Shown here: positions 929 to 10,660 of the stretch, piece after piece
Position numbering within the stretch: position 1 is the stretch's first letter
Layout of the letters: each line of letters opens with the position of its first letter
The notes under the pieces: generated by a model
What the model saw: only the letters and a program-made list of their open reading frames with translations
Told to the model about the DNA's origin: nothing
The model's database searches: none
Program-made: the position numbers and the translations under genes
UHGV virus genome: UHGV-0280588
Direction: 5' to 3' (one strand)
Source of the DNA: a virus
DNA length: 10,694 nucleotides

Positions 929-3376
929 TTAACCGTCATGCATCATGCTGGCACGGGCGCGCACACGTTTATCCCGCTCGTATTTTTCGAGCGCATCCTG
1001 TAACTGGCGGTCAAGCTGTGTCCCCGGCGCAGTACCACCCGTCAGGCTGATGTGATATTCGTTTTTACTCTGGTCCACATAAGAGCGGCCAGCCGGTGCC
1101 GTGACCGGCTGATAAGCCTGATAGCCTGCATAAGAGCTGGTCGCCGGAATATAACCACCGGTGCCATACGTGGCGGCATGAGTTCTGGCGGCGGTCTGGT
1201 CAAGTGTGTCTGACTCTTTGTTGATAACACCGAGTTTTTCCAGTACCCAGTCAATACCGCTGCGCAGTTTGTTGAACGCATTAAGCGGCAGCATCAGCGC
1301 GTCAGCCAGTGCCTGCCCGAACATGACGCCCGTGTCACGGCAACGGTTCAGGGTGTCCTGTGTGGCTTTAACCGGAGCAATCAGGTTTGTAAACCACTGC
1401 CACGCGGCCTGTAACTTTTCGCCCAGCCAGTCAAACACCGGCTTAAGTGGCGTGAACAGCTCCCCCACCGGCGCAAATGCCGCTTTCAGCCCTTCAACCA
1501 CACCGCCAAAGAATGCGCTGACAGGCTCCCAGTATTTACGGATAAGCAACGCCCCGGCGACAATGGCAGCCACCACGGCCACAACCGGCCAGCTAATCGC
1601 ACCGATGGCCGTCATAACGGCACTACCAACCGTCGTGAAGATTGCCCCCATTGCGCCTGCTGCCGCGATAATGGCATTGATGCCGGTGATAACCGGCCAG
1701 GCTACAAGGCCAATGGCACCGATGATGCCAGTCAGCGCCAGTGCACCGCCGGCAATGATGCCGATGGTTGACGCCAGTGATTTGTTTTTCTGTATCCAGC
1801 CGTCGAGTTTTAACACATACTTTGTGGCCGTCTGCGTGAGCTTACGCAGCGCGCCTTCCTGCTGGTCAAACAGGTCAGTCCCCACAGCCTCATAAGCGGA
1901 CTGAAACTCCTTAAAGTCACCGCCGAGGTTATCCTGCATGATTTTAACCAGCTCTTCCGTTTTACTGTCCGAGGCTTTCAGCGTGGCGGTCAGCGTATCC
2001 AGTTTTCCGCTTGCTGCCGCTGCCAGTAAAACGTTCGCTGATTTCAGGGCTTCCTCACCAAAAATGGTTTTAAGGTATTCCCCCTTCTGAGACGTTCCCA
2101 GCTTGTGTTTATCAAAGCTGGCCTGAATCTCTTTCAGAATGGTGAACAACGGACGCATATTTCCCTTTTTGTCCGAGGTTTTAACGCCAAGCTCTTTGAG
2201 TGCATCCCATGCTTTTCCAGTCGGAGCCTGTAATCGGGTGACAACGGCACTACTACCCGTACCCGCCATTGACCCCCTGATGTTATTGTCATGCAGCACA
2301 CCGGTCATGGCTGCTGCCTGCTCAAGACTTACACCTGCCGTTCTTGCGACCGGACCGAGGTAAGTCAGTGCATCACTGAGTCCCTGAAAATCAGCCGCCG
2401 ACTTATTCATCGTTGCCGACAACACGTCGCCCACATGGCTGACATCATCATTTGACAGTTGAAAGGATGCCTTAGTCCCCAGCAACAGTTGCGCGTTTTC
2501 TTCCATCGACCGCTGATTCGCCAGCGCCATATTCAGCGTGACCGGCGTTGCCGCCTGAATGGCATCAACATCCCCACCCGCTTTCGCGATGATTATCTGT
2601 GCACCGGCCGCATCATCCGCCGAGGCGGCGGTATTGTCGCCGAGCTGGCGCGCCTGTTTGCGTAGTGCGGTCATTTCGGCGGAGTCTTTTGCCACTCCGA
2701 GCACGGCCTGCAATTCTGAGTTTTTCTGCGCAAACTCATAACCGGGCATCAGCAACTTAACTCCGGCCATCGTTCCCGCCGCCGCAATCCCCACACCGGC
2801 AGCGCCCACTGAGGCCATATTTCCGGCCAGTTCCTTTCCGGCCTGATAACGCTGTTTTACTGCGTTAAGTTTTGCCTGTTGCGCACTGACACGCGCCAGC
2901 GCGTCACGCTGACGGTTAAGCTGTGCGGTGGTTTCACTGATACGATTTTTCAGTCCCTGCTCATCATGTGCAAGATTGCGGGTATTAATTCCCACAGCGG
3001 CCAGTTCCCGCTGCTGGCGTTTAACGGAATCCGTCAGGCGGTTATATTTCGCCTGTAAGTCCTCCGCCGCACGCTTTGCGGATTCCAGCACTTTCGCCTG
3101 AGCACGGGTCGGACGTTCGGTGTTTTTAAACTGTGTGGCAAGGGCTTCGGCCTCCTGCCGTGCCTTTTCAAGTGCATGACCAGTTACGGCGAGCTGTGCA
3201 CTGGTCTTGCGAAATCCCTCAATACGGGATGCGTGACCGTTCAGCTCGCGCAGTGATTTTTGTGTTTCCCGGATATCCCCCGACAGCGACCTGCTCGCTG
3301 TGCGGATGGATTTAAACGGGCGGGATGCCTGGTCAACAGCCCTGAGCAATACCTGTAATTTTACATTGTTACTCAT
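929..3376 (-). CDS. T: Tail tape measure protein (gpT-like)
   Basis: 815-aa ORF with a coiled-coil-like N-terminal half (many Q/R/A/L/E), a long Gly/Ala/Ile-rich hydrophobic block (IGIIAGGALALTGIIGAIGLVAWPVITGINAIIAAAGAMGAIFTTVGSAV...) and a C-terminal region, typical of tape measure proteins. Lies directly after E/E' as in P2. Confidence 0.92.
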   Translation of the reverse strand: MSNNVKLQVLLRAVDQASRPFKSIRTASRSLSGDIRETQKSLRELNGHASRIEGFRKTSAQLAVTGHALEKARQEAEALATQFKNTERPTRAQAKVLESAKRAAEDLQAKYNRLTDSVKRQQRELAAVGINTRNLAHDEQGLKNRISETTAQLNRQRDALARVSAQQAKLNAVKQRYQAGKELAGNMASVGAAGVGIAAAGTMAGVKLLMPGYEFAQKNSELQAVLGVAKDSAEMTALRKQARQLGDNTAASADDAAGAQIIIAKAGGDVDAIQAATPVTLNMALANQRSMEENAQLLLGTKASFQLSNDDVSHVGDVLSATMNKSAADFQGLSDALTYLGPVARTAGVSLEQAAAMTGVLHDNNIRGSMAGTGSSAVVTRLQAPTGKAWDALKELGVKTSDKKGNMRPLFTILKEIQASFDKHKLGTSQKGEYLKTIFGEEALKSANVLLAAAASGKLDTLTATLKASDSKTEELVKIMQDNLGGDFKEFQSAYEAVGTDLFDQQEGALRKLTQTATKYVLKLDGWIQKNKSLASTIGIIAGGALALTGIIGAIGLVAWPVITGINAIIAAAGAMGAIFTTVGSAVMTAIGAISWPVVAVVAAIVAGALLIRKYWEPVSAFFGGVVEGLKAAFAPVGELFTPLKPVFDWLGEKLQAAWQWFTNLIAPVKATQDTLNRCRDTGVMFGQALADALMLPLNAFNKLRSGIDWVLEKLGVINKESDTLDQTAARTHAATYGTGGYIPATSSYAGYQAYQPVTAPAGRSYVDQSKNEYHISLTGGTAPGTQLDRQLQDALEKYERDKRVRARASMMHDG

Positions 3377-3796
3377 TCGTGTTTCCGCTTCGCCGGAGCG
3401 CCTTTTCGCGCCATGTGATGAGTTCGGTCAGGCTCATGGGATACAGTTCTGATGGCGGCCAGTGAAATATCACTGCCACATCCGCCATCAGGTCATCGAC
3501 CGAGAGATTTTTCGGAAACGTCACTGCACCGAGTTCGGCGACAAAAAACCAACCACCTTACCGGCCAGCGCCACAAGGTCAGGCAGCTCCAGTGCGGCAA
3601 CCTCCTGCTCGGTCAGCATCGGTGCCGTCATGCGCGGCAGCACTTTAATCAGTGCATCGACTTCGGAGTTCGCGACCGCAGCCAGACTGACACCGCGCAG
3701 CGTCCCGGCACTGGGTTTCATCAGCGTGACCTGTTCGATAACCTGCTCACCACGCTTGACCGGATTGTCCAGGGTAATCACATTTTCTTTGTTCAT
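3369..3796 (-). CDS. E': Tail assembly chaperone E+E' made by -1 programmed ribosomal frameshift
   Basis: Slipping -1 at T_TTT_TTG (minus strand, 3548-3542) continues as VAELGAVTFPKNLSVDDLMADVAVIFHWPPSELYPMSLTELITWREKALRRSGNTNE (57 codons) to TAA at 3371-3369, overlapping the tape measure ATG (3376-3374). This is the arrangement reported for P2 E/E' and for lambda G/GT. Confidence 0.78.
3521..3796 (-). CDS. E: Tail assembly chaperone E (gpE-like), frame-0 product
   Basis: 91-aa ORF MNKENVITLDNPVKRGEQVIEQVTLMKPSAGTLRGV...AGKVVGFLSPNSVQ between the tube gene and the tape measure gene; small acidic chaperone in the position of P2 E. Confidence 0.88.
   Translation of the reverse strand: MNKENVITLDNPVKRGEQVIEQVTLMKPSAGTLRGVSLAAVANSEVDALIKVLPRMTAPMLTEQEVAALELPDLVALAGKVVGFLSPNSVQ
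3542..3548 (-). promoter_or_regulatory. Slippery heptamer T_TTT_TTG for the E/E' -1 frameshift
   Basis: Plus strand 3541-3550 is acaaaaaacc, so the minus strand reads GGT TTT TTG in the E frame; the -1 frame is open for 57 codons from here. Confidence 0.75.
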
Positions 3797-3852: not shown

Positions 3853-4371
3853 TCACAGGCCGATATTGCGGCGGTGTTGCTCCAGCCGGTCGACGCCGTT
3901 CACCTTCTCAATCATGTTGATGGTGTCGATTTCGACCAGCTCCTTACCGTCCATCGTCAGCCGGAAATAGGTGCAGACCACGGAGATTTTCGACTCGGTG
4001 TCTTCTCCCTGTTTCCCCTCGCCGGTGTCGATTTCTTTCTGACGTCCACGCATGACCACTTCAACGGCCACCGTTTCGCCGGTATCGTCACGCTGGTAAG
4101 AGCCAGCAAAACGAATCGGCACGGCATCCACACCGGTTGCGGCGTAAAGCTCCCAGATAACCGAATCCGGGAAGCCCCCGAGCGACCACTCCATTGACAG
4201 CGCATCGTCATCAAGGCCGAGGTCTACCGGTGCGCTTCCGTTCATCCCCGCACCGCGATAGTTTTCGAGTTTACGGGTCAGTTTTGGCAGCGTGACGGAC
4301 TTTGCAACGCCCTGATAGCTGTAGCCGTTCAGAAAGACGTTCATTAACTTGAGTTTGCGCGGCATTGCCAT
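3853..4371 (-). CDS. FII: Tail tube protein (gpFII-like)
   Basis: 172-aa ORF MAMPRKLKLMNVFLNGYSYQGVAKSVTLPKLTRKLENYRGAGMNGSAPVDLGLDD... directly downstream of the sheath gene (12-bp gap); matches contractile-tail tube proteins of the P2 FII family. Confidence 0.92.
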   Translation of the reverse strand: MAMPRKLKLMNVFLNGYSYQGVAKSVTLPKLTRKLENYRGAGMNGSAPVDLGLDDDALSMEWSLGGFPDSVIWELYAATGVDAVPIRFAGSYQRDDTGETVAVEVVMRGRQKEIDTGEGKQGEDTESKISVVCTYFRLTMDGKELVEIDTINMIEKVNGVDRLEQHRRNIGL

Positions 4372-4383
4372 CGGTCAGGCTCC

Positions 4384-5574
4384 TTAATTGCTGTTAACCG
4401 AGGTGACCAGATTTGCCAGGTATTTATCGGTAATACGCTGGCGCAGGGTCAGGTTTTCAAGAGGAGGCACCGGAGTATAGTCGTAGTCGATATACAGTTT
4501 TCCGGCCTTAAGGGTTTCCGCATCGTTGGATTCTTCGCTGAACCAGCAGGTCGCATCCACGATATAGCCGTTTGTTTTCAGCTCACGGAATTTGGCATTG
4601 ATGCCGTCAACGATGTCGCGAATCAGCGTTGCGGTGATGGGCTTGTCCACCGCCCACATGTGCGCCTCAGCCATCGTGTCGGCCAGCACCTGCGCGGTGC
4701 GGGTGTAGTTTTCAAAGAGGAACAGCGGGTCATCAGAGCAGGTACGGTTACCCCAGAAGCGGAAACCGTCGCGGCGAATCAGCGTTGTGACGCCTGACTC
4801 GTTAAGCAGGTCAGCATCGGTGCCGGACTCCTGCAAATCCCAGAATACAGAGGCGCTGATGCCGGTAACACCGTTCACCCCGACATTGGACAGCGTTTTA
4901 TGCCAGCCCTGCTCCTGGTCAATTCTGGCTCGCAGACCCAGCGCACGGGCGGTGGCATATGCGGTGGCGGTGGTACTGGTGACCGTATCCCATGCGAGGA
5001 AATCCGGCCAGATGACCATCAGCTCACGCTGGCTGAAATTCTGGCGGTAGGCTTTCACCTCGGAAATGGTCTTACAGCCCCATGCGCTGATATATCCGAA
5101 AGCGCGCAGCTTCTGACAGACTGATGCCAGTGCAACAGCCACCTCTTTGGTATCCAGCCCCGGCACACCAAGAATACGCGGTTTAACACCGGTTACCGAC
5201 TCTGCCGCCAGCAGAGCTTTCAGTCCGGTGTACTGACCATTTTCGTCGGTGGTGCCGATGATATTGGAAACGGTCTGCGCGAGTTTCGTTTCTTCGTCGT
5301 CGCCGGTGCCGTCTTCCACACGCACGACAACGGTGACCGGTTTTGACTGGTCAGCGATGGCCTGCAGCGACGCCGCCAGCGTGCCTTTTTTACCGGCCTT
5401 TGCAATTGCGCTCTGCACATTGGTAATCAGCACCGGTTTATTGAGGGGGAAGATTTCCGCATCCGCATCGCTGGCCGTGCAGACCATGCCGACAATGGCG
5501 GTGGATACGGTGGAAATGACGCGGGTGCCGTCGTTAATCTCCAGCACCTGCACGCCGTGATGATAGTCACTCAT
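4384..5574 (-). CDS. FI: Tail sheath protein (gpFI-like)
   Basis: 396-aa ORF MSDYHHGVQVLEINDGTRVISTVSTAIVGMVCTASDAD...; N-terminus and length match P2-type sheath proteins; followed by tube, E/E', T, U, D in P2 order. Confidence 0.93.
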   Translation of the reverse strand: MSDYHHGVQVLEINDGTRVISTVSTAIVGMVCTASDADAEIFPLNKPVLITNVQSAIAKAGKKGTLAASLQAIADQSKPVTVVVRVEDGTGDDEETKLAQTVSNIIGTTDENGQYTGLKALLAAESVTGVKPRILGVPGLDTKEVAVALASVCQKLRAFGYISAWGCKTISEVKAYRQNFSQRELMVIWPDFLAWDTVTSTTATAYATARALGLRARIDQEQGWHKTLSNVGVNGVTGISASVFWDLQESGTDADLLNESGVTTLIRRDGFRFWGNRTCSDDPLFLFENYTRTAQVLADTMAEAHMWAVDKPITATLIRDIVDGINAKFRELKTNGYIVDATCWFSEESNDAETLKAGKLYIDYDYTPVPPLENLTLRQRITDKYLANLVTSVNSN

Positions 5575-5633: not shown

Positions 5634-6227
5634 CTATTTGTCCCGGTTGGCTAAGGGATGACACAATTTATTCTTTGTCGCTGATGAGGGGAATTTTTTA
5701 TAGAGCGTGGACAGGCCAATATCAAAAATCAGCGCCACACGTTGACGAGATTCCCCCGCAGCCAGCAACCGTCCGACCTGCTCCCACTCACTCGCGGTGA
5801 GTTTCGGACGTCTGCCACCAATACGGCCTTTGGCTCTGGCCGCTTCCAGTCCGGCGCGTGTCCGCTCGACAATGAGTTCTCGTTCCATTTCAGCCAGGGC
5901 ACCCATCACATGAAAGAAAAAACGCCCCATCGGCGTGCTGGTATCAATAGCATCCGTCAGGCTGCGAAAATTAATGCCGCGTTCGCGCAGTTCCTCAACC
6001 AGAATGACCAGATGCCGCATACTACGCCCCAGCCTGTCCAGCTTCCAGACCACCAGAGTGTCACCTGCTGATAATGTTCTGAGCAGTTTTTTCAGTCCCG
6101 GTCGGTCGGACTTCGTGCCGCTGATTTTATCCTCAAAAATCAGCTCACATCCTGCGCACTCCAGCGCGTTACGCTGCAATTCCGTGTTCTGGTCATTTGT
6201 TGACACGCGTACATAGCCAATAAGCAT
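5634..6227 (-). CDS. pin: Serine DNA invertase, Gin/Pin/Hin/Cin family
   Basis: Translation MLIGYVRVSTNDQNTELQRNALECAGCELIFEDKISGTKSDRPGLKKLLRTLSAGDTLVVWKLDRLGRSMRHLVILVEELRERGINFRSLTDAIDTSTPMGRFFFHVMGALAEMERELIVERTRAGLEAARAKGRIGGRRPKL... carries the catalytic YVRVST serine motif and is near-identical in pattern to Gin/Pin as I recall them. Start set at the second ATG (6227-6225), which aligns with the MLIGYVRV start of homologues and has AGGGGGA well spaced upstream; the track's start at 6233 adds two residues. Confidence 0.92.
   Translation of the reverse strand: MLIGYVRVSTNDQNTELQRNALECAGCELIFEDKISGTKSDRPGLKKLLRTLSAGDTLVVWKLDRLGRSMRHLVILVEELRERGINFRSLTDAIDTSTPMGRFFFHVMGALAEMERELIVERTRAGLEAARAKGRIGGRRPKLTASEWEQVGRLLAAGESRQRVALIFDIGLSTLYKKFPSSATKNKLCHPLANRDK
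6120..6144. promoter_or_regulatory. Candidate recombinational enhancer / Fis-binding palindrome inside the 5' part of pin
   Basis: gctgatttt (6120-6128) and aaaatcagc (6136-6144) are exact reverse complements around a 7-bp spacer, with G...C ends and an AT-rich centre like Fis sites. It lies about 85-105 bp into the invertase gene, where Hin/Gin/Cin enhancers are located. Confidence 0.3.
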
Positions 6228-6282
6228 GAGCATCCCCCTGAATAAAAACCGGAGATGATGCCACTTGCCCGTTATCTATGCA

Positions 6283-6308
6283 TTTTCATAAACGTTGGTT
6301 TGGGAGAA
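6283..6308. promoter_or_regulatory. Invertase crossover site (gix/hix-like, pin-proximal)
   Basis: TTTTCATAAACG TT GGTTTGGGAGAA, a 12+2+12 site closely resembling hixL (TTCTTGAAAACC AA GGTTTTTGATAA as recalled). The inner half-site plus 9 further bases (6295-6315, ttggtttgggagaagccagat) recur in inverted orientation at 7731-7751. Confidence 0.72.
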
Positions 6309-6989
6309 GCCAGATTCTCTGGTCGTTTGTTAAACACGAATATTTTTAAAAGCTCTGGAAAATATATCCCAACACCAGGGACAAAAAAGATAAGGGTCAT
6401 TGCCTCTGGTGGCGGTGGCGGCGGCGGTGGGGTTCCTGAAACAACAGAAAATCAGCAGGCAACAGCCGGAGCTGGATTGAGCGGCGCATTTATTGAAGCA
6501 TTTTTCGAGGTTGATAATGATTTCGAAGTCAACGTTATTATCGGTGCTGCAGGTAAAGGTGGGGGAGCCGGAAGAAATTCAGGTAGTGAAGGTGGCACAA
6601 CTTATTTCGGTTCCATGATAACTGCACCTGGTGGTACAGGCGGTGGCGCGGGGGGAGCATCTGCAAACACATCATATATTCAGGGTATTTCATGGGGTGC
6701 CAGTCCGACATCGTCCGGTACTGTACTAAGAGCATTTCGCTGTAGTGCAAAAACACCAGGAGCAATGGTTATCTCTGTTAAAGCTGTAGCAGGTGGTACC
6801 GGGGGGGATACACCATTAGGTTCAGGCGGTATAGGTGGTGCAAGTTCTTCATCATTCAGCGGACGTGGTGGTGGTAAAGCTGAGGGCTTTGGTGCTGGCG
6901 GAGGCGGAGCCTGCGCACCTGCTGGAAGTGAGGCTCAATCGGGAGGTGACGGTGCCCCGGGAATAGTTATTGTTGAGGAGTATGCCTGA
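6297..6989 (+). CDS. Silent alternative tail-fibre C-terminal cassette, glycine-rich (230 aa), expressed only after inversion
   Basis: Plus-strand frame GLGEARFSGRLLNTNIFKSSGKYIPTPGTKKIRVIASGGGGGGGGVPE...GAPGIVIVEEYA shares the crossover-encoded GLGEAR with the H constant part in the same codon phase (junction codon xTT at both sites). Part of track ORF 6255-6989, whose ATG lies outside the segment. Confidence 0.72.
   Translation, partial: GLGEARFSGRLLNTNIFKSSGKYIPTPGTKKIRVIASGGGGGGGGVPETTENQQATAGAGLSGAFIEAFFEVDNDFEVNVIIGAAGKGGGAGRNSGSEGGTTYFGSMITAPGGTGGGAGGASANTSYIQGISWGASPTSSGTVLRAFRCSAKTPGAMVISVKAVAGGTGGDTPLGSGGIGGASSSSFSGRGGGKAEGFGAGGGGACAPAGSEAQSGGDGAPGIVIVEEYA
6408..6431 (+). repeat. 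(GGY)8 trinucleotide run encoding Gly8
   Basis: GGT GGC GGT GGC GGC GGC GGT GGG read directly from the sequence, inside the glycine-rich cassette. Confidence 0.9.
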
Positions 6990-7255
6990 TGAGTAATTTT
7001 GCTCTGATTGAACATGGCGTGGTGAAAAATATTATTATCTGGGATGGAGAGGGGGATTTATTCTCTAATTGCGAAATTATAAATATTGATCATATAGATG
7101 CAGGCGTCGGTTGGTTCTATTCTGACGGAGAGTTTATAGCACCACCGGAACCGGAAATGACTGAATATGATGTTGGTAATATCGACGCGGTGATGGAAGC
7201 AGATACCAGCACCGCGCCGGGGGTTATCTGGCCAGTTCCACCTGAGATGGTTTAA
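6989..7255 (+). CDS. Putative short tail-fibre assembly/chaperone protein for the glycine-rich cassette
   Basis: 88-aa ORF whose ATG overlaps the cassette stop (ATGA). C-terminus ...DTSTAPGVIWPVPPEMV resembles the conserved C-terminal motif of lambda Tfa as I recall it (...RVDTSTAPDIEWPAVPVME). Much shorter than typical Tfa/gpG/U proteins (about 175-195 aa). Confidence 0.5.
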   Translation: MSNFALIEHGVVKNIIIWDGEGDLFSNCEIINIDHIDAGVGWFYSDGEFIAPPEPEMTEYDVGNIDAVMEADTSTAPGVIWPVPPEMV

Positions 7256-7511
7256 TCTCAATCAGAATGGGTTCGCCCTTCTCGTTAACAGATATTTCCA
7301 TTCCTTCAGGGATTTCAGATGCAGTAAAAAACCAGTTATCTTCTGGTAATTCCACAGCCCCGGTCACGTCATGAAGACCGGGGATTACTTCAGTCAAAGT
7401 AACAGGATTAAACAGGCGCACAATAAACTCTCCAGGAAAAAGCACTTGTTGATGGTCTTCCGTCGTACATCTGGCAGCGGACATAAAAACCTGTATTACT
7501 GACCTGGTCAT
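7224..7511 (-). CDS. Uncertain small ORF, possibly a tail-fibre assembly/chaperone protein for the current fibre variant; start not resolved
   Basis: 95-aa frame MTRSVIQVFMSAARCTTEDHQQVLFPGEFIVRLFNPVTLTEVIPGLHDVTGAVELPEDNWFFTASEIPEGMEISVNEKGEPILIEIKPSQVELAR. It overlaps the 3' end of H (stop at 7408-7410) in another frame; the ATG starts at 7511 and 7484 overlap by 104 and 77 nt, and in-frame GTG codons at 7445 and 7421 would give shorter overlaps. Its 3' end overlaps the plus-strand ORF by 32 bp. Confidence 0.35.
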   Translation of the reverse strand: MTRSVIQVFMSAARCTTEDHQQVLFPGEFIVRLFNPVTLTEVIPGLHDVTGAVELPEDNWFFTASEIPEGMEISVNEKGEPILIEIKPSQVELAR

Positions 7512-8799
7512 CCACGATCATTGAAACGTGAACGTTATTAGGTGTGGCCTCGTAATCTGTTCTTATTCTTTCCGCTATGCTGATAAAACGTGAAAGTTTA
7601 GGTAGTGCAATTGGATAAACGACTTTAGCCAGCCCATTATCATTGGAACCACCAGTTCCAAATACTTCTATTGCACCATCTGACCAGCGTATCCATGCAC
7701 CATTGACATTAGCTCCTCGCTGAATGACATATCTGGCTTCTCCCAAACCAAGGTATGCGAGAAGACCAGCAACATCCTTTCCACTCAAATTAGTCAGCGT
7801 ATTGTCCAGCGGTTGTTTGCCTGCCAGTGCATTAAGCACTGTTGTTGAAAAGTTAGGGTCATTCCCCAGCGCCGCCGCCAGTTCATTCAGTGTATCCAGT
7901 GCCGCAGGGGCAGAACCCACCATTGCCGCAATTGCTGATTTCACAAAAGCCGTGGTAGCAATCTGTGTATTGTTGACCGACTGTGCCGCCGTAGGTGCTG
8001 TTGGCGTTCCGGTAAGTGCGGGACTCGACAGCGGCGCTTTCAGCGCCAGCGTATTGTTAATGGTGGTACTGAATTTCGGGTCATTATTAATGGCTGCGGC
8101 AATTTCTTTCAGTGTGTCCAGCGTGGCTGGCGCACCGTTAATCAGAGCAGTAATAGCAGCCTGTACAAACGCAGTGGTCGCAATCCGCGTGGTGTTATTT
8201 CCTGCGGCAGGCGTCGGCGCTTTTGGTTCTCCGGTAAATGTCGGATTATGTTTCTGTGCATACTGGGTATGAGGATCCTGTGCGGCAATGTGGTTTCTCA
8301 TCTGGTCATCCACATAAAGCTTTAATTCCAGGACTTCATCATCCACGTATTTACGGGTCGCCAGTACCACCGACGGGTCGATTTTCAGCGTGATGGCTTC
8401 GGTATTCGTGACAACCAGAATCATGCGGATAGTCTGGGTACGACCGCTGCCTTCCTGCAACTGCGGTTTGTACGTTTCCGGGCAGTTCGCCACCGCAATG
8501 AGTACGCCTTCATCATCATAAAGCCCAATCTCACGGATCCAGAATCCGCCCTCGTTCTCAGGGATGATTTGCTCCGCAATAATCTGGCTCTGGTTGTTCG
8601 GGTCAACACTCAGAAGATTCAGCGGCGCAATGCGTTTCTGGTTAATCAGTTTTGTCTGTGCCGGGTCTGGTGTCGGCAAGACACCATTCGCATCACCAAC
8701 GGCCATTTGCGTCAGATTCAGCTTACTGCCGAGCATCGTCGCGTTAGCCAGCCGTGCTGCGCCCTGATTAGTCAGAATGGCGTAGTATTTCACTGTCAT
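7408..8799 (-). CDS. H: Tail fibre protein (gpH-like), current orientation: constant part 8799-7752, variable C-terminus 7749-7408
   Basis: 463-aa ORF; N-terminal domain MTVKYYAILTNQGAARL...MAVGD...GGFWIREIGLYDDEGVLIAVAN...YVDD is the conserved baseplate-attachment domain of P2 H / Mu S / P1 S type fibres, followed by two shaft repeats, then LGLGEAR at the crossover site and a 107-aa variable tail. ATG overlaps the gpI stop. Confidence 0.9.
   Translation of the reverse strand: MTVKYYAILTNQGAARLANATMLGSKLNLTQMAVGDANGVLPTPDPAQTKLINQKRIAPLNLLSVDPNNQSQIIAEQIIPENEGGFWIREIGLYDDEGVLIAVANCPETYKPQLQEGSGRTQTIRMILVVTNTEAITLKIDPSVVLATRKYVDDEVLELKLYVDDQMRNHIAAQDPHTQYAQKHNPTFTGEPKAPTPAAGNNTTRIATTAFVQAAITALINGAPATLDTLKEIAAAINNDPKFSTTINNTLALKAPLSSPALTGTPTAPTAAQSVNNTQIATTAFVKSAIAAMVGSAPAALDTLNELAAALGNDPNFSTTVLNALAGKQPLDNTLTNLSGKDVAGLLAYLGLGEARYVIQRGANVNGAWIRWSDGAIEVFGTGGSNDNGLAKVVYPIALPKLSRFISIAERIRTDYEATPNNVHVSMIVDDQVSNTGFYVRCQMYDGRPSTSAFSWRVYCAPV
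7738..7763. promoter_or_regulatory. Invertase crossover site (gix/hix-like, fibre-proximal), inside the H coding sequence
   Basis: TTCTCCCAAACC AA GGTATGCGAGAA on the plus strand; inner half-site identical to the reverse complement of the inner half of the 6283-6308 site, and the central dinucleotides (AA here, TT there) are complementary as inverted repeats require. Encodes LGLGEA of the fibre. Confidence 0.72.
7806..8244 (-). repeat. Diverged tandem duplication (2 units of about 219 bp, about 73 aa) in the tail-fibre shaft
   Basis: Protein repeats PTFTGEPKAPTPAAGNNTTRIATTAFVQAAITALINGAPATLDTLKEIAAAINNDPKFSTTINNTLALKA and PALTGTPTAPTAAQSVNNTQIATTAFVKSAIAAMVGSAPAALDTLNELAAALGNDPNFSTTVLNALAGKQ; also visible in the antisense plus-strand ORF 7724-8272. 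Boundaries are approximate. Confidence 0.7.
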
Positions 8800-9407
8800 G
8801 CGTTTACTCTCAGGTTATCAATTAAATGAATGGCCGAGGCCGGGAAATAATCCCCTCCGACAATAATGGCCTCCGGGGTGTAGGGATAAACCGTCAGGGC
8901 GTCACCGTGATAGCATCCCGCACCGGCAAAAATGTTGCCGGTTGTACTTAAACTGATAGCCAGTCCCGTCAGATGGCGGCTTGCCGGTTTGGCATCAGCA
9001 ACGAGGCGCTCCAGCTCCTGATACATTTCCTCGGTAATACCCTGCTCAAGCACGCCGACAACGATACGGAACGTCCCCGGCTCCTCGTTGAGCTGCCACC
9101 ACTCCCTCACCTCAATCAGATAGCCGAGTGGCTCCACCACACGGCGAATCGCACCAATAGTGCCCTTATGGCAGTGAATGAAATACGCATCGCGGATAAC
9201 AGCGCGTTTTGTCGCTTCCGGCCACTTATCATCCCAGCGGTCAACCGAAAATGACCACGCCAGCCACGGCAGCAGATTTGCCGGGCAGGTGTCCGGGTTC
9301 CACAGCTCACGAATACTGACCGGCGTTTTTTCAATTTCCGCACAGGCTTTTGCGGCGGCGACTTCAAGCGGTGATGAGCCAGTCGGCAGCAGTCGCGAAT
9401 CACTCAT
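8796..9407 (-). CDS. I: Baseplate assembly protein I (gpI-like)
   Basis: 203-aa ORF MSDSRLLPTGSSPLEVAAAKACAEIEKTPVSIRELWNPDTCPANLLPWLAWSF... between J and H; 3' end overlaps the H start. Confidence 0.85.
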   Translation of the reverse strand: MSDSRLLPTGSSPLEVAAAKACAEIEKTPVSIRELWNPDTCPANLLPWLAWSFSVDRWDDKWPEATKRAVIRDAYFIHCHKGTIGAIRRVVEPLGYLIEVREWWQLNEEPGTFRIVVGVLEQGITEEMYQELERLVADAKPASRHLTGLAISLSTTGNIFAGAGCYHGDALTVYPYTPEAIIVGGDYFPASAIHLIDNLRVNA

Positions 9408-10308
9408 CCGAGCCTCCGGTCACGACGCTGTATTCGGTGCAGAAAGACGCCTGCATACTGTTGAGCACGATGTCAGCCAGCGGTGCAGCCAGTTCGACAC
9501 GCTGCACGCCTTCCACATGCAAAGCGGCATAAATGGCAGACAGACGGATGTCGCGCCCCAGCCGGTGCTGTGCCGTGATGTACGCTTCCAGTTTTTTCAC
9601 GGCGGCGGCGCGGATGGGTTCGCTTTCGGGACCAGGGTAAAGGTAAAGCGTGGCGTTTATCTGGTATTCAACAATGGCGGCAGACTGCACGGTCACGCGG
9701 TCGGCCACCGGCCTGACGTCCTCGCCATTAAGGGCGTTACGCACCACGGCCAGCAGGTCTTCGGATGCGACACCGTTATTTTCACGTGACAGCACAGAGA
9801 TGGTGACGCAGGCCGGAGACGGACTGGTGACAGAAATATCCGCGACACGCCCGTCAGCACTGCGACCATGATACTGATAGGCTCCCACCGACCCGGCGAC
9901 GCTTAAGCCCTCAAACGCCTGCTGAATACGCAGACGATAATCGGTGTCAGACTCCATCACTGCCGGTGTCGGCGGGATAGTCGAATCATCTGCCGGGGTG
10001 ATAGTCAGGCGCGTGGTGTTGTAATTGGCACCAATCACATCAAGGTCATTACCGGCAGCACAGGCCAGCATTACCGCCCGTGCGGCCTCATTCACACGCT
10101 GACGCCAGATAAGCTCGCGATAAGCATTTTCCTCCAGCAGTTTGACGAGAGGCTCGGATTCCAGCGTCAGGGTACGGGCGACCGCCTCCTGCTGGTCTTC
10201 CGGGTAAAGGGAAATCAGTGTCGCCTTGCGTTCGGCAAGAATGGTTTCAAAGTCCAGCTCCTCGACCACATCCGGTGCAGGTAGCTGGTTCAGGTCGATA
10301 ATCGGCAT
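9400..10308 (-). CDS. J: Baseplate assembly protein J (gpJ-like)
   Basis: 302-aa ORF MPIIDLNQLPAPDVVEELDFETILAERKATLISLYPEDQQEAVARTLTLESEPLVKLLEENAYRELIWRQRVNEAARAV...; size and position between W and I match P2 gpJ. Overlaps the gpI start by 8 nt. Confidence 0.9.
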   Translation of the reverse strand: MPIIDLNQLPAPDVVEELDFETILAERKATLISLYPEDQQEAVARTLTLESEPLVKLLEENAYRELIWRQRVNEAARAVMLACAAGNDLDVIGANYNTTRLTITPADDSTIPPTPAVMESDTDYRLRIQQAFEGLSVAGSVGAYQYHGRSADGRVADISVTSPSPACVTISVLSRENNGVASEDLLAVVRNALNGEDVRPVADRVTVQSAAIVEYQINATLYLYPGPESEPIRAAAVKKLEAYITAQHRLGRDIRLSAIYAALHVEGVQRVELAAPLADIVLNSMQASFCTEYSVVTGGSDE

Positions 10309-10312
10309 GGTT

Positions 10313-10660
10313 TCAACTCACAGGGATGGTTAACGAAAGTGGCTGGCCGGTGTCGTTGTGCTGGCCGGTTAACGTAACTGTCATTCGCCCGTCAAAACTG
10401 CGCGCCGTGGTGACGGATGACAGGGTGACGCGGGGTTCCCATTTCAGCACTGCCATGTAACAGGCAACCTTAATCTGCAACTCAAGCGCCGGGGTCTGCG
10501 GCTGGTCAATCATTGACGCCAGCAACGAGCCGTAATCACGACGCATCACCCGTGAGCCGACCGGTGTGCGCAGGATATCGCCGATACTCTGGCTGATATG
10601 CTCAAGGTCAGTGACAATCAGGCCATCACTGCGATTCATTCCGAGATAACGCGCTGTCAT
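10313..10660 (-). CDS. W: Baseplate protein W (gpW-like)
   Basis: 115-aa ORF MTARYLGMNRSDGLIVTDLEHISQSIGDILRTPVGSRVMRRDYGSLLASMIDQPQTPALELQIKVACYMAVLKWEPRVTL...; small baseplate protein directly upstream of J. Confidence 0.88.
   Translation of the reverse strand: MTARYLGMNRSDGLIVTDLEHISQSIGDILRTPVGSRVMRRDYGSLLASMIDQPQTPALELQIKVACYMAVLKWEPRVTLSSVTTARSFDGRMTVTLTGQHNDTGQPLSLTIPVS

Follow-up and report, generated by a model that had tools for sequence, protein, structure and literature searches.

Two short genes behind the alternative fibre tips of a P2-like prophage and their likely descent from Tfa-type chaperones

Tfa-type chaperones decide the folding of engineered or swapped phage and tailocin fibres, and their genes are routinely co-transferred when the host range of a particle is retargeted. 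Can a fibre tip be served by much less than a complete chaperone? The question is raised by UHGV virus genome UHGV-0280588, of which a stretch of 10,694 nucleotides (the window) was analysed. ORF calls and Pfam matches identify its content as the tail module of a P2-like (Peduoviridae-type) Escherichia coli prophage. In the middle of an invertible tail fibre segment in this module lie two short, convergent open reading frames (ORFs), one behind each alternative fibre tip. A sequence-only reading of the window had noted the pair and had offered three explanations, namely minimal chaperones, a deletion that collapsed two tfa genes, or a frameshift that damaged the end of the active fibre cassette. 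Both ORFs proved to be real compact genes rather than a sequencing lesion or chance ORFs, and both are homologous to the N-terminal domains of accepted fibre assembly proteins. We consider it likely that they encode domain-stripped Tfa proteins, each serving its own tip, whose C-terminal domain was lost ancestrally.

The two short genes and the segment that carries them

The ORF listing places an ORF of 88 amino acids (aa) on the plus strand (6989-7255) and, on the minus strand, an ORF at 7224-7511 that would measure 95 aa from its first ATG; the fibre gene occupies 7408-8799 on the minus strand. The 3' ends of the two short ORFs overlap by 32 nucleotides (nt) at 7224-7255, as the sequence-only reading had said. 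The same reading had given the minus-strand ORF at most 95 aa and an out-of-frame overlap of 14-104 nt with the 3' end of the fibre gene. The overlap is genuine, and its upper figures fall away because the true start is a GTG at 7421 and not the ATG at 7511. The gene thus spans 7224-7421 on the minus strand and encodes a 65-aa protein beginning MRLFNP..., with a GGAGAG located 8 nt upstream of the GTG. Evidence for this start comes from relatives. All 22 aligned members of the family begin with MR[LYH]F[ND]. At 13 loci from 12 other genera, including Intestinirhabdus, Erwinia, Trabulsiella, Yersinia, Mixta, Enterobacter, Cedecea and Xenorhabdus, an ATG or GTG stands exactly at this position, with a GGAG-type Shine-Dalgarno sequence 7-9 nt upstream in each. 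Since all homologues begin here, the overlap with the fibre gene is 14 nt (GTGCGCCTGTTTAA, 7421-7408) instead of the 104 nt counted from ATG 7511. The 95-aa reading was ruled out, as conservation begins at MRLFNP and the homologue in Yersinia pekkanenii carries an in-frame stop two codons upstream of the start. The plus-strand ORF has a GAGGAG upstream, and its start overlaps the stop of the fibre tip before it as TGATG (6987-6991). In RefSeq each of the two products is a 'hypothetical protein', the 65-aa one under WP_001236016.1 and the 88-aa one under WP_001534173.1.

The 65-aa gene belongs to a family of similarly short genes. A search of 5.8 billion proteins yielded 141 homologues, from Escherichia, Enterobacter, Salmonella, Kosakonia, Citrobacter, Cronobacter, Hafnia, Yersinia and other hosts, with 59-85% identity. 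The best 120 of the 141 are 47-90 aa long, and complete members, either aligned or read from their loci, are 57-66 aa. They share a conserved core of 55 residues (MRLFNPxTLTEVIPGxHDxTGAIELPEDNWFFTxTEIPEGKxLAVNExGEPILID), and the 2-12 residues that follow the core vary in both length and sequence. At each locus examined, the small gene is found directly behind a homologous short tip ending ...FSW[RHQ][VL]... In family DNA from 14 loci, the proportion of synonymous differences (pS) over codons 6-54 was saturated, with a median of 0.79, against 0.24 for nonsynonymous differences (pN), which argues that the ORF is not open by chance. In the 28 pairs with a finite dS, the ratio of nonsynonymous to synonymous rates (dN/dS) did not exceed 0.31, and its median was 0.15. 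In other words, the 65-aa gene is protein-coding and under purifying selection.

Does the out-of-frame overlap with the fibre gene betray a lesion? The 14-nt overlap (GTG/ATG-CGC-CTG-TTTAA) recurs in Escherichia phage S164, Intestinirhabdus, Trabulsiella, Xenorhabdus and other loci. At further loci the fibre stop precedes the small gene, which has a separate Shine-Dalgarno sequence. These two arrangements exclude both a lesion and a fusion of fibre and chaperone by frameshifting, the latter because the fibre stop lies ahead of the small gene in several genera. The frameshift lesion proposed at the end of the active cassette is thereby refuted. The presence of the same short ORFs in other genomes had been named beforehand as an argument for genuine genes, and such ORFs were found.

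The premise of an invertible segment was also correct. Imperfect inverted repeats of 33 nt (85%) at 6283-6315 and 7731-7763 adjoin a serine invertase gene of the Pin/Gin/Hin type (5634-6233, minus strand; Pfam Resolvase 4.3e-52 and HTH_7 5.2e-13), which flips the fibre segment and is labelled 'recombinase family protein' by RefSeq in identical prophages. Each repeat arm contains a crossover site of 26 base pairs (bp). The left site (6283-6308) is a 12-2-12 quasi-palindrome, TTTTCATAAACG-TT-GGTTTGGGAGAA, and the right site (7738-7763), TTCTCCCAAACC-AA-GGTATGCGAGAA, lies within the fibre codons for LGLGEA, a motif that is common to both tips and opens the plus-strand ORF 6255-6989. The complementary central dinucleotides, TT on the left and AA on the right, presumably match what is expected of Gin/Cin/Pin-type sites. 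The fibre gene consists of a constant N-terminal part and shaft of a P2 H-like tail fibre (7751-8799, minus strand; Pfam Phage_tail_fib 2.9e-62) and, fused to it at present, the active variable tip of ~113 aa (7408-7750, minus strand; the C-terminal part of ORF 7408-8799), which ends ...FSWRVYCAPV and has a weak match to Gp53-like_C (Pfam, E 0.38). The alternative tip, glycine-rich and silent, is not joined to the shaft at present (6297-6989, plus strand; within ORF 6255-6989, Pfam Gly_rich_2 1e-07).

Window positions 6200-7800 share 98% identity or more with segments of complete E. coli chromosomes, and in RefSeq these segments are flanked as in the window, by genes for sheath, recombinase, fibre and tail protein I. 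Orientation was compared in 27 E. coli genomes that have the whole segment. It is that of the window in 10 and the opposite one relative to the flanks in 17; in these 17 the match is limited to window 6292-7751, inverted against its surroundings. In the opposite orientation, the shaft and the glycine-rich tip form a 580-aa fibre. Thus, the crossover sites lie in the fibre gene, both orientations occur in nature, and the inversion system remains active in the population.

Three draft contigs, from Intestinirhabdus alba, Trabulsiella guamensis and Cedecea neteri, consist of the invertible segment alone (1177-1314 bp) with the small gene; the assemblies probably broke at the crossover repeats because the culture held both orientations. 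The G+C content is 41-44% in both chaperone genes and the active tip (6900-7700) versus 52-55% in the constant part of the fibre gene and the flanks, which is consistent with cassettes exchanged horizontally. The silent tip (6297-6989) may be a receptor-binding tip of the polyglycine type, like S16 gp38 or Pam3 gp24.

Relation of the two proteins to Tfa

The best profile match of the 65-aa protein is phrog_5400, a family of 'unknown function' with 145 positions. Residues 1-64 match profile positions 1-66 only (4.7e-23). Cronobacter phage JK004 gene_1, a protein of 128 aa that matches Caudo_TAP over residues 36-127 (1.4e-20) and ends VDIANPVWPIIPN, is 34% identical to the 65-aa protein over the first 64 residues (2e-5). 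In this alignment the 65-aa protein stops exactly at the boundary between N-terminal domain and linker, EPILIEIKPSQVELAR and a stop codon against EPVLQDIPAPTPADLAAEAE... The profile boundary and the alignment boundary together indicate that the 65-aa protein is a Tfa-type N-terminal domain without the C-terminal domain. The AlphaFold2 (AF2) model is small and all-beta, with a predicted local distance difference test score (pLDDT) of 83.5; no significant neighbour of this model was found in the PDB. The truncation is old, as it is present in at least 12 enterobacterial genera. The gene also occurs outside invertible segments, in Yersinia and in an unclassified member of the Enterobacterales, and in a P2-like prophage of Ca. 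Erwinia dacicola a gene of this type is the sole gene between fibre and sheath.

Xenorhabdus provides variants of the arrangement. In X. khoisanae and X. bakwenae the convergent partner of the small gene is a Tfa of 110-126 aa, and the two genes are separated by a 26-nt gap instead of overlapping. X. bakwenae has two small-gene cassettes, one beside an invertase in a P2-like tail cluster and one elsewhere.

The 88-aa protein is best described as a chaperone derivative for the glycine-rich tip. Its N-terminal domain (residues 1-56) is joined by a short linker to what is left of a Tfa C-terminal domain, the last ~24 residues (DTSTAPGVIWPVPP). Residues 1-56 match phrog_14370 (63 positions, also 'unknown function') at 2.3e-08. 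The tail, residues 65-87, carries the DTSTAP..WP motif that the sequence-only reading had likened to lambda Tfa, and it does match the C-termini of Tfa families (phrog_188, phrog_3792 and phrog_105), weakly, with E values of 0.02-0.12. Among the relatives found by tblastn, Goslar_00089 (Caudo_TAP 2.8e-20) is a 'tail fiber assembly protein' of 138 aa, whose identity to the 88-aa ORF is 53% for residues 4-56 (6e-12). The other tblastn relatives were gene 24 of Pantoea phage AH07 (140 aa, Caudo_TAP 1.2e-12) and a gene of Klebsiella phage Kp4865-2. In the jumbo phage Goslar, the fibre has a tip similar to the start of the silent tip of the window (E 6e-9), and Goslar_00089 follows the very fibre with this glycine-rich tip start. 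As the Goslar locus shares both parts, tip and N-terminal domain travel together.

How common are short forms in this second family? Word-indexed searching found only E. coli proteins at least 92% identical to the 88-aa ORF, and an exhaustive HMMER search, which returned 212 cluster representatives, was needed to see the wider family. Lengths, taken from the best 150 of the 212, are bimodal: 72 representatives are at most 80 aa, 22 are 81-115 aa, 53 are 116-160 aa and 3 exceed 160 aa. A W[PE] motif in the last 20 residues is present in 42 of the 53 representatives of 116-160 aa. In other words, about half of the family in this sample consists of the N-terminal domain only (53-80 aa). In an alignment with 41 relatives, the 88-aa protein has the N-terminal domain and the start of the linker (APPEPEMTEYDV), then a gap of ~46 residues, then GNIDAVMEADTSTAPGVIWPVPPEMV, which aligns with ...LDYLDALEAIDTSSAPDIEWPVTP of the long forms. 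The gap is in frame relative to the relatives of 130-138 aa. Among the aligned relatives, this architecture is limited to the protein's own cluster (P0123).

Further insight into the tail comes from Kp4865-2 (Peduoviridae), where the fibre measures 573 aa and has a Gly_rich_2 tip. Behind it come a 60-aa gene for the N-terminal domain only, an in-frame stop and a degenerate Tfa remnant, YRELLMYQSASAAPGIF. With the tail located behind a stop codon in this phage, the tail of the 88-aa protein would be a relic rather than a requirement, and the DTSTAP..WP motif appears, from these alignments, to be a left-over of the ancestral C-terminal domain. In the Kp4865-2 locus an IS1 transposase fragment (L008, 3184-3760; DDE_Tnp_IS1, 1.3e-47) replaces the right half of the segment.

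The AF2 model of the 88-aa protein has a pLDDT of ~90 for residues 1-50 and of 52-74 for the rest. Its best PDB match by Foldseek is chain a of 7ypx, which is Pam3 gp25 (162 residues), with a probability of 0.99 and a root-mean-square deviation of 2.8 A over 59 columns. The match would fit a glycine-rich tip served by a gp25-like N-terminal domain, but it is weak.

Do the two proteins then belong to Caudo_TAP (PF02413)? Each has an N-terminal, fibre-specific domain homologous to that of accepted members, and each is encoded directly downstream of a fibre tip and coupled to it, the linkage of tip and small gene being present in all relatives examined. PF02413 is matched by the long relatives (Goslar_00089, AH07_24, JK004 gene_1, P0126 and P0133), and neither window ORF matches it at E <=1. 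When the long relatives are included in the profiles, Mu Tfa U (5YVQ_B) is matched at 1.9e-10 and 2.4e-12, over C-terminal residues 94-175 and 107-175 only. The C-terminal helical domain, which ends DTSxAP..WP, is absent from the 65-aa protein, and the 88-aa protein keeps only its last ~24 residues. Because this defining conserved domain is missing, both were filed as domain-stripped Tfa derivatives and not as Caudo_TAP members; they probably work like a Tfa N-terminal domain. The two N-terminal domains are mutually unrelated (hhalign profile-profile probability 0.2%), as expected of tip-specific domains. The idea of minimal chaperones thus gains support from the homology of both ORFs to Caudo_TAP N-terminal domains and from the wide distribution of short forms. 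The expectation that a full-length chaperone would measure 175-195 aa does not apply to this lineage of P2-like segments, in which full-length forms are 110-147 aa.

The remaining proposal, a deletion that collapsed two tfa genes, can be judged from the centre of the segment. In the overlap at 7224-7255, the codons for KPSQVELAR and the stop of the 65-aa protein are the antisense of the partner's codons for WPVPPEMV and its stop. The overlap measures 17, 20 or 29 nt in relatives, or is replaced by the gap seen in Xenorhabdus. When the centres of the window, S164, Intestinirhabdus and Enterobacter segments were aligned, the Tfa 3' end (...GATAC...GCACC...TGGCC...TAA) was found within a few bases of the antisense of GEPILI(D/E) in all four. 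The core of the small gene and the 3' end of its partner thus meet at an inherited junction, and the variable tail of the small protein is mere read-through into the opposite strand of the partner's WPxxP codons, ending at the first stop. A conserved functional role of the 3' overlap was ruled out, as its length varies and the overlapped residues are unconserved; the overlap is a by-product of tight packing. The deletion proposal therefore stands in part. Both proteins derive from two-domain Tfa, and the 88-aa protein bears its in-frame gap, but a single recent collapse is excluded because the 65-aa truncation is found in so many genera and the junction also occurs beside full-length Tfa partners.

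One such case is the sister E. coli segment in CP138217. Its left cassette is that of the window, here with a plus-strand ORF of 87 aa. Its right cassette differs and carries a complete Tfa of 139 aa (Caudo_TAP 2.6e-23) that ends DTSGAPDIEWPTPPAVQAR at its stop codon. The 3' end of this Tfa overlaps the plus-strand ORF at the same ATCTGGCC, which is read as IWP on one strand and as AR-stop on the other. Similarity between the window and sister E. coli segments, including this one, breaks at ~7220-7233.

The junction between the tfa stop and the antisense of GEPILI(D/E) (window 7202-7275) occupies the same position in four otherwise different segments whose centres were aligned (L002, which is the CP138217 segment, L004, L009 and L014), and the segment centre looks like a recurrent boundary for swapping half-segments of tip plus chaperone. 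No convincing intrinsic terminator was found between the convergent genes, and promoter-like matches there were below the shuffle expectation. A stable hairpin lies just downstream of the 65-aa stop (7183-7220, minus strand; CGGCGCGGUG...CACCGCGUCG); it has no T-run and so is not a canonical terminator. Compared with shuffled sequence, the fold of the surrounding 121 nt (7180-7300) has z = -2.55.

Proposed function of the small proteins and the alternatives

How might a Tfa protein work when reduced to its N-terminal domain? In the current model, as set out in PMC9608196, the variable N-terminal domain of Tfa binds the fibre and the conserved C-terminal domain is responsible for trimerisation or assembly. 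Mu U binds the side of its cognate fibre tip through the N-terminal domain (PMC9608196). Likewise, the N-terminal beta-sandwich of Pam3 gp25 (PDB 7YPX), of ~55 residues, binds the side of the glycine-rich fibre tip gp24 (PMC9608196). In the window, each cassette is a tip with a translationally coupled small gene, and only the cassette joined to the shaft would be transcribed with the late operon. The 65-aa gene would then serve the active short tip and the 88-aa gene the silent glycine-rich tip. By analogy with Mu and Pam3, each small protein may bind laterally to a monomer of its cognate tip and protect, cap or assist it during folding, and trimerisation, normally helped by the helical bundle of the chaperone, may be driven by the fibre itself. 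Past residue ~55, the 65-aa frame simply runs into the antisense of the partner's last codons until it meets a stop.

Several observations weigh against this proposal. Both ORFs stay below all thresholds of Pfam and NCBIfam. The 88-aa architecture is found only within a narrow group of E. coli sequences with at least 92% identity, and selection has been shown for the 65-aa family alone. The counterpart of the 88-aa tail in Kp4865-2 sits behind a stop codon, and the Pam3 gp25 match to the 88-aa model is statistically weak (Foldseek E 0.17; 17% identity). Most importantly, the current model has the C-terminal domain drive trimerisation, which leaves assembly without it unexplained. We nevertheless regard domain-stripped Tfa proteins serving their own tips as the likely explanation. 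The broader claim that N-domain-only Tfa proteins are widespread, unrecognised minimal chaperones or tip caps working without the C-terminal trimerisation domain is put forward tentatively, at a confidence just short of even.

The strongest of the competing explanations holds that tfa genes have decayed and left the short ORFs as remnants without function, still open by chance or because the decay is recent, and that the fibres are defective or fold by themselves. The 88-aa gene lends itself to such a reading, with its obvious internal deletion of ~46 residues in near-identical E. coli sequences. In one genome its tail is listed by RefSeq as a pseudogene, an incomplete 'phage tail protein', and the stop codon in Kp4865-2 and the failure of both ORFs to pass Pfam thresholds point the same way. 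The 65-aa family, however, has kept its length, start, Shine-Dalgarno sequence and 55-residue core in at least 12 genera while synonymous sites became saturated. N-domain-only forms make up about half of the other family too, and the segment still inverts. Decay is therefore an unlikely account of the pair as a whole; taken separately, non-functional relics are unlikely for the 65-aa family and possible for the 88-aa tail.

Another explanation is that N-domain-only proteins are specificity adaptors that require a C-terminal domain in trans from the Tfa of another prophage, which would make them dependent on the prophage content of the host. Cross-complementation between Tfa proteins has been reported in older work, with lambda Tfa standing in for T4 gp38. 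Several tfa genes are usual in E. coli, where the segment query matched 2,298 of 5,426 genomes, at up to 10 places per genome. Moreover, the C-terminal domain is the conserved part of the family, as the profile matches to 5YVQ_B and PMC9608196 both indicate. Yet in the solved complexes described in PMC9608196, the two domains act as one polypeptide with a short linker. The 65-aa gene also resides in diverse genera and is the sole such gene of the Erwinia element. We know of no mechanism by which a free N-terminal domain recruits a foreign C-terminal domain, and we hold this explanation to be improbable.

About as improbable, in our judgement, is the view that the small proteins are not primarily chaperones but accessory subunits that, like Mu Tfa, stay bound to the tip in the virion, where they would shape receptor binding or mask it. 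Mu and Ur-lambda Tfa remain on mature particles through their N-terminal domains, according to PMC9608196, and the strict pairing of each small gene with one type of tip fits a stable tip-binding partner. On the other hand, Pam3 gp25, the best structural match of the 88-aa N-terminal domain, is absent from virions (PMC9608196). Sequence does not separate a retained subunit from a transient chaperone, and this view overlaps domain-stripped Tfa proteins serving their own tips more than it excludes them. Finally, an indel introduced by sequencing or assembly error at the end of the active fibre cassette, for which only the appearance of a 14-104 nt out-of-frame overlap speaks, can be dismissed as having a negligible chance, since the 27 independently sequenced complete E. 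coli genomes have the identical arrangement, distant genera have the same 14-nt overlap, and the fibre end keeps the motif ...FSWRVY.AP[VIF] before its stop across loci.

If N-domain-only Tfa proteins do work as minimal chaperones or tip caps, the C-terminal domain is dispensable for certain tip folds, such as short Gp53-like knobs and glycine-rich tips, and the two-domain model of Tfa is not general. The prophage would then offer a natural example of two alternative fibres that both depend on minimal partners, and some tips may need a partner of only ~55 residues, which could help to engineer compact fibres. It would also become possible to annotate hundreds of 'hypothetical proteins' encoded behind fibre genes. 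Pfam Caudo_TAP misses the N-domain-only class because the part of the profile that its members could match is the domain they lack. Overall, the two genes are of use for annotation and put the generality of the two-domain model mildly in question, and the picture of invertible fibre segments is unchanged. Invertible fibre segments and Tfa are both known, so that N-domain-only forms are a modest variation and not a new kind of system. No paper on N-domain-only or truncated Tfa was found in the open-access literature, which is absence of evidence in an incomplete library.

Tail module and comparison with known systems

The genes around the segment complete a P2-like tail module. All lie on the minus strand, so transcription runs opposite to the rising window coordinate, with W first and U last: W (10313-10660), J (9400-10308), I (8796-9407), then, beyond the fibre segment and the invertase, the sheath gene (4384-5574), the tube gene (3853-4371), the E/E' genes (3369-3796), the tape measure gene (929-3376) and U (435-914). 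Between the tube and tape measure genes, overlapping ORFs of 91 aa (3521-3796) and 51 aa (3369-3524) look like the P2 E and E+E' tail chaperones that arise from programmed frameshifting.

The invertible segment resembles those of Mu (G, with Gin), P1 (C, with Cin) and e14 (P, with Pin) and P2-like segments such as that of Escherichia phage S164. All have an adjoining serine invertase, crossover sites within the fibre gene and two convergent cassettes of tip plus chaperone. Relative to P2 itself, the ~1.45-kb invertible segment of the window stands in place of gene G. S164 has the same small gene in its silent cassette and the same junction to the 3' end of its partner. In S164 and the other loci, however, the partner, where present, is a full Tfa of 110-147 aa, whereas in the window both cassettes lack the C-terminal domain and no complete Tfa is present.

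As regards the proteins, the best profile matches, phrog_5400 and phrog_14370, are families without functional annotation. The former appears to be built largely from longer proteins, of which the window protein matches the N-terminal end only. Pam3 gp25 offers a structural parallel. The 88-aa ORF also follows a Gly_rich_2 tip, and its modelled N-terminal domain matches gp25 best in the PDB, but the 99-residue helical trimerisation domain of gp25 (64-162) is missing from the 88-aa protein. The closest comparison is with Caudo_TAP (PF02413), which includes lambda Tfa, Mu U/U', P2 G and P1 U. As in that family, the genes lie directly downstream of the fibre and are translationally coupled to it, with one gene per alternative tip in the invertible segment. 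Homology links their N-terminal domains to those of Goslar_00089, AH07_24 and JK004 gene_1, and the 88-aa protein keeps the terminal DTSxAP..WP. The window proteins differ in lacking the family-defining C-terminal domain, which matches Mu U (5YVQ_B) at 94-175, and in size, as they measure 65 and 88 aa, where the proteins of sister segments have 110-147 aa and that of Mu has 175 aa.

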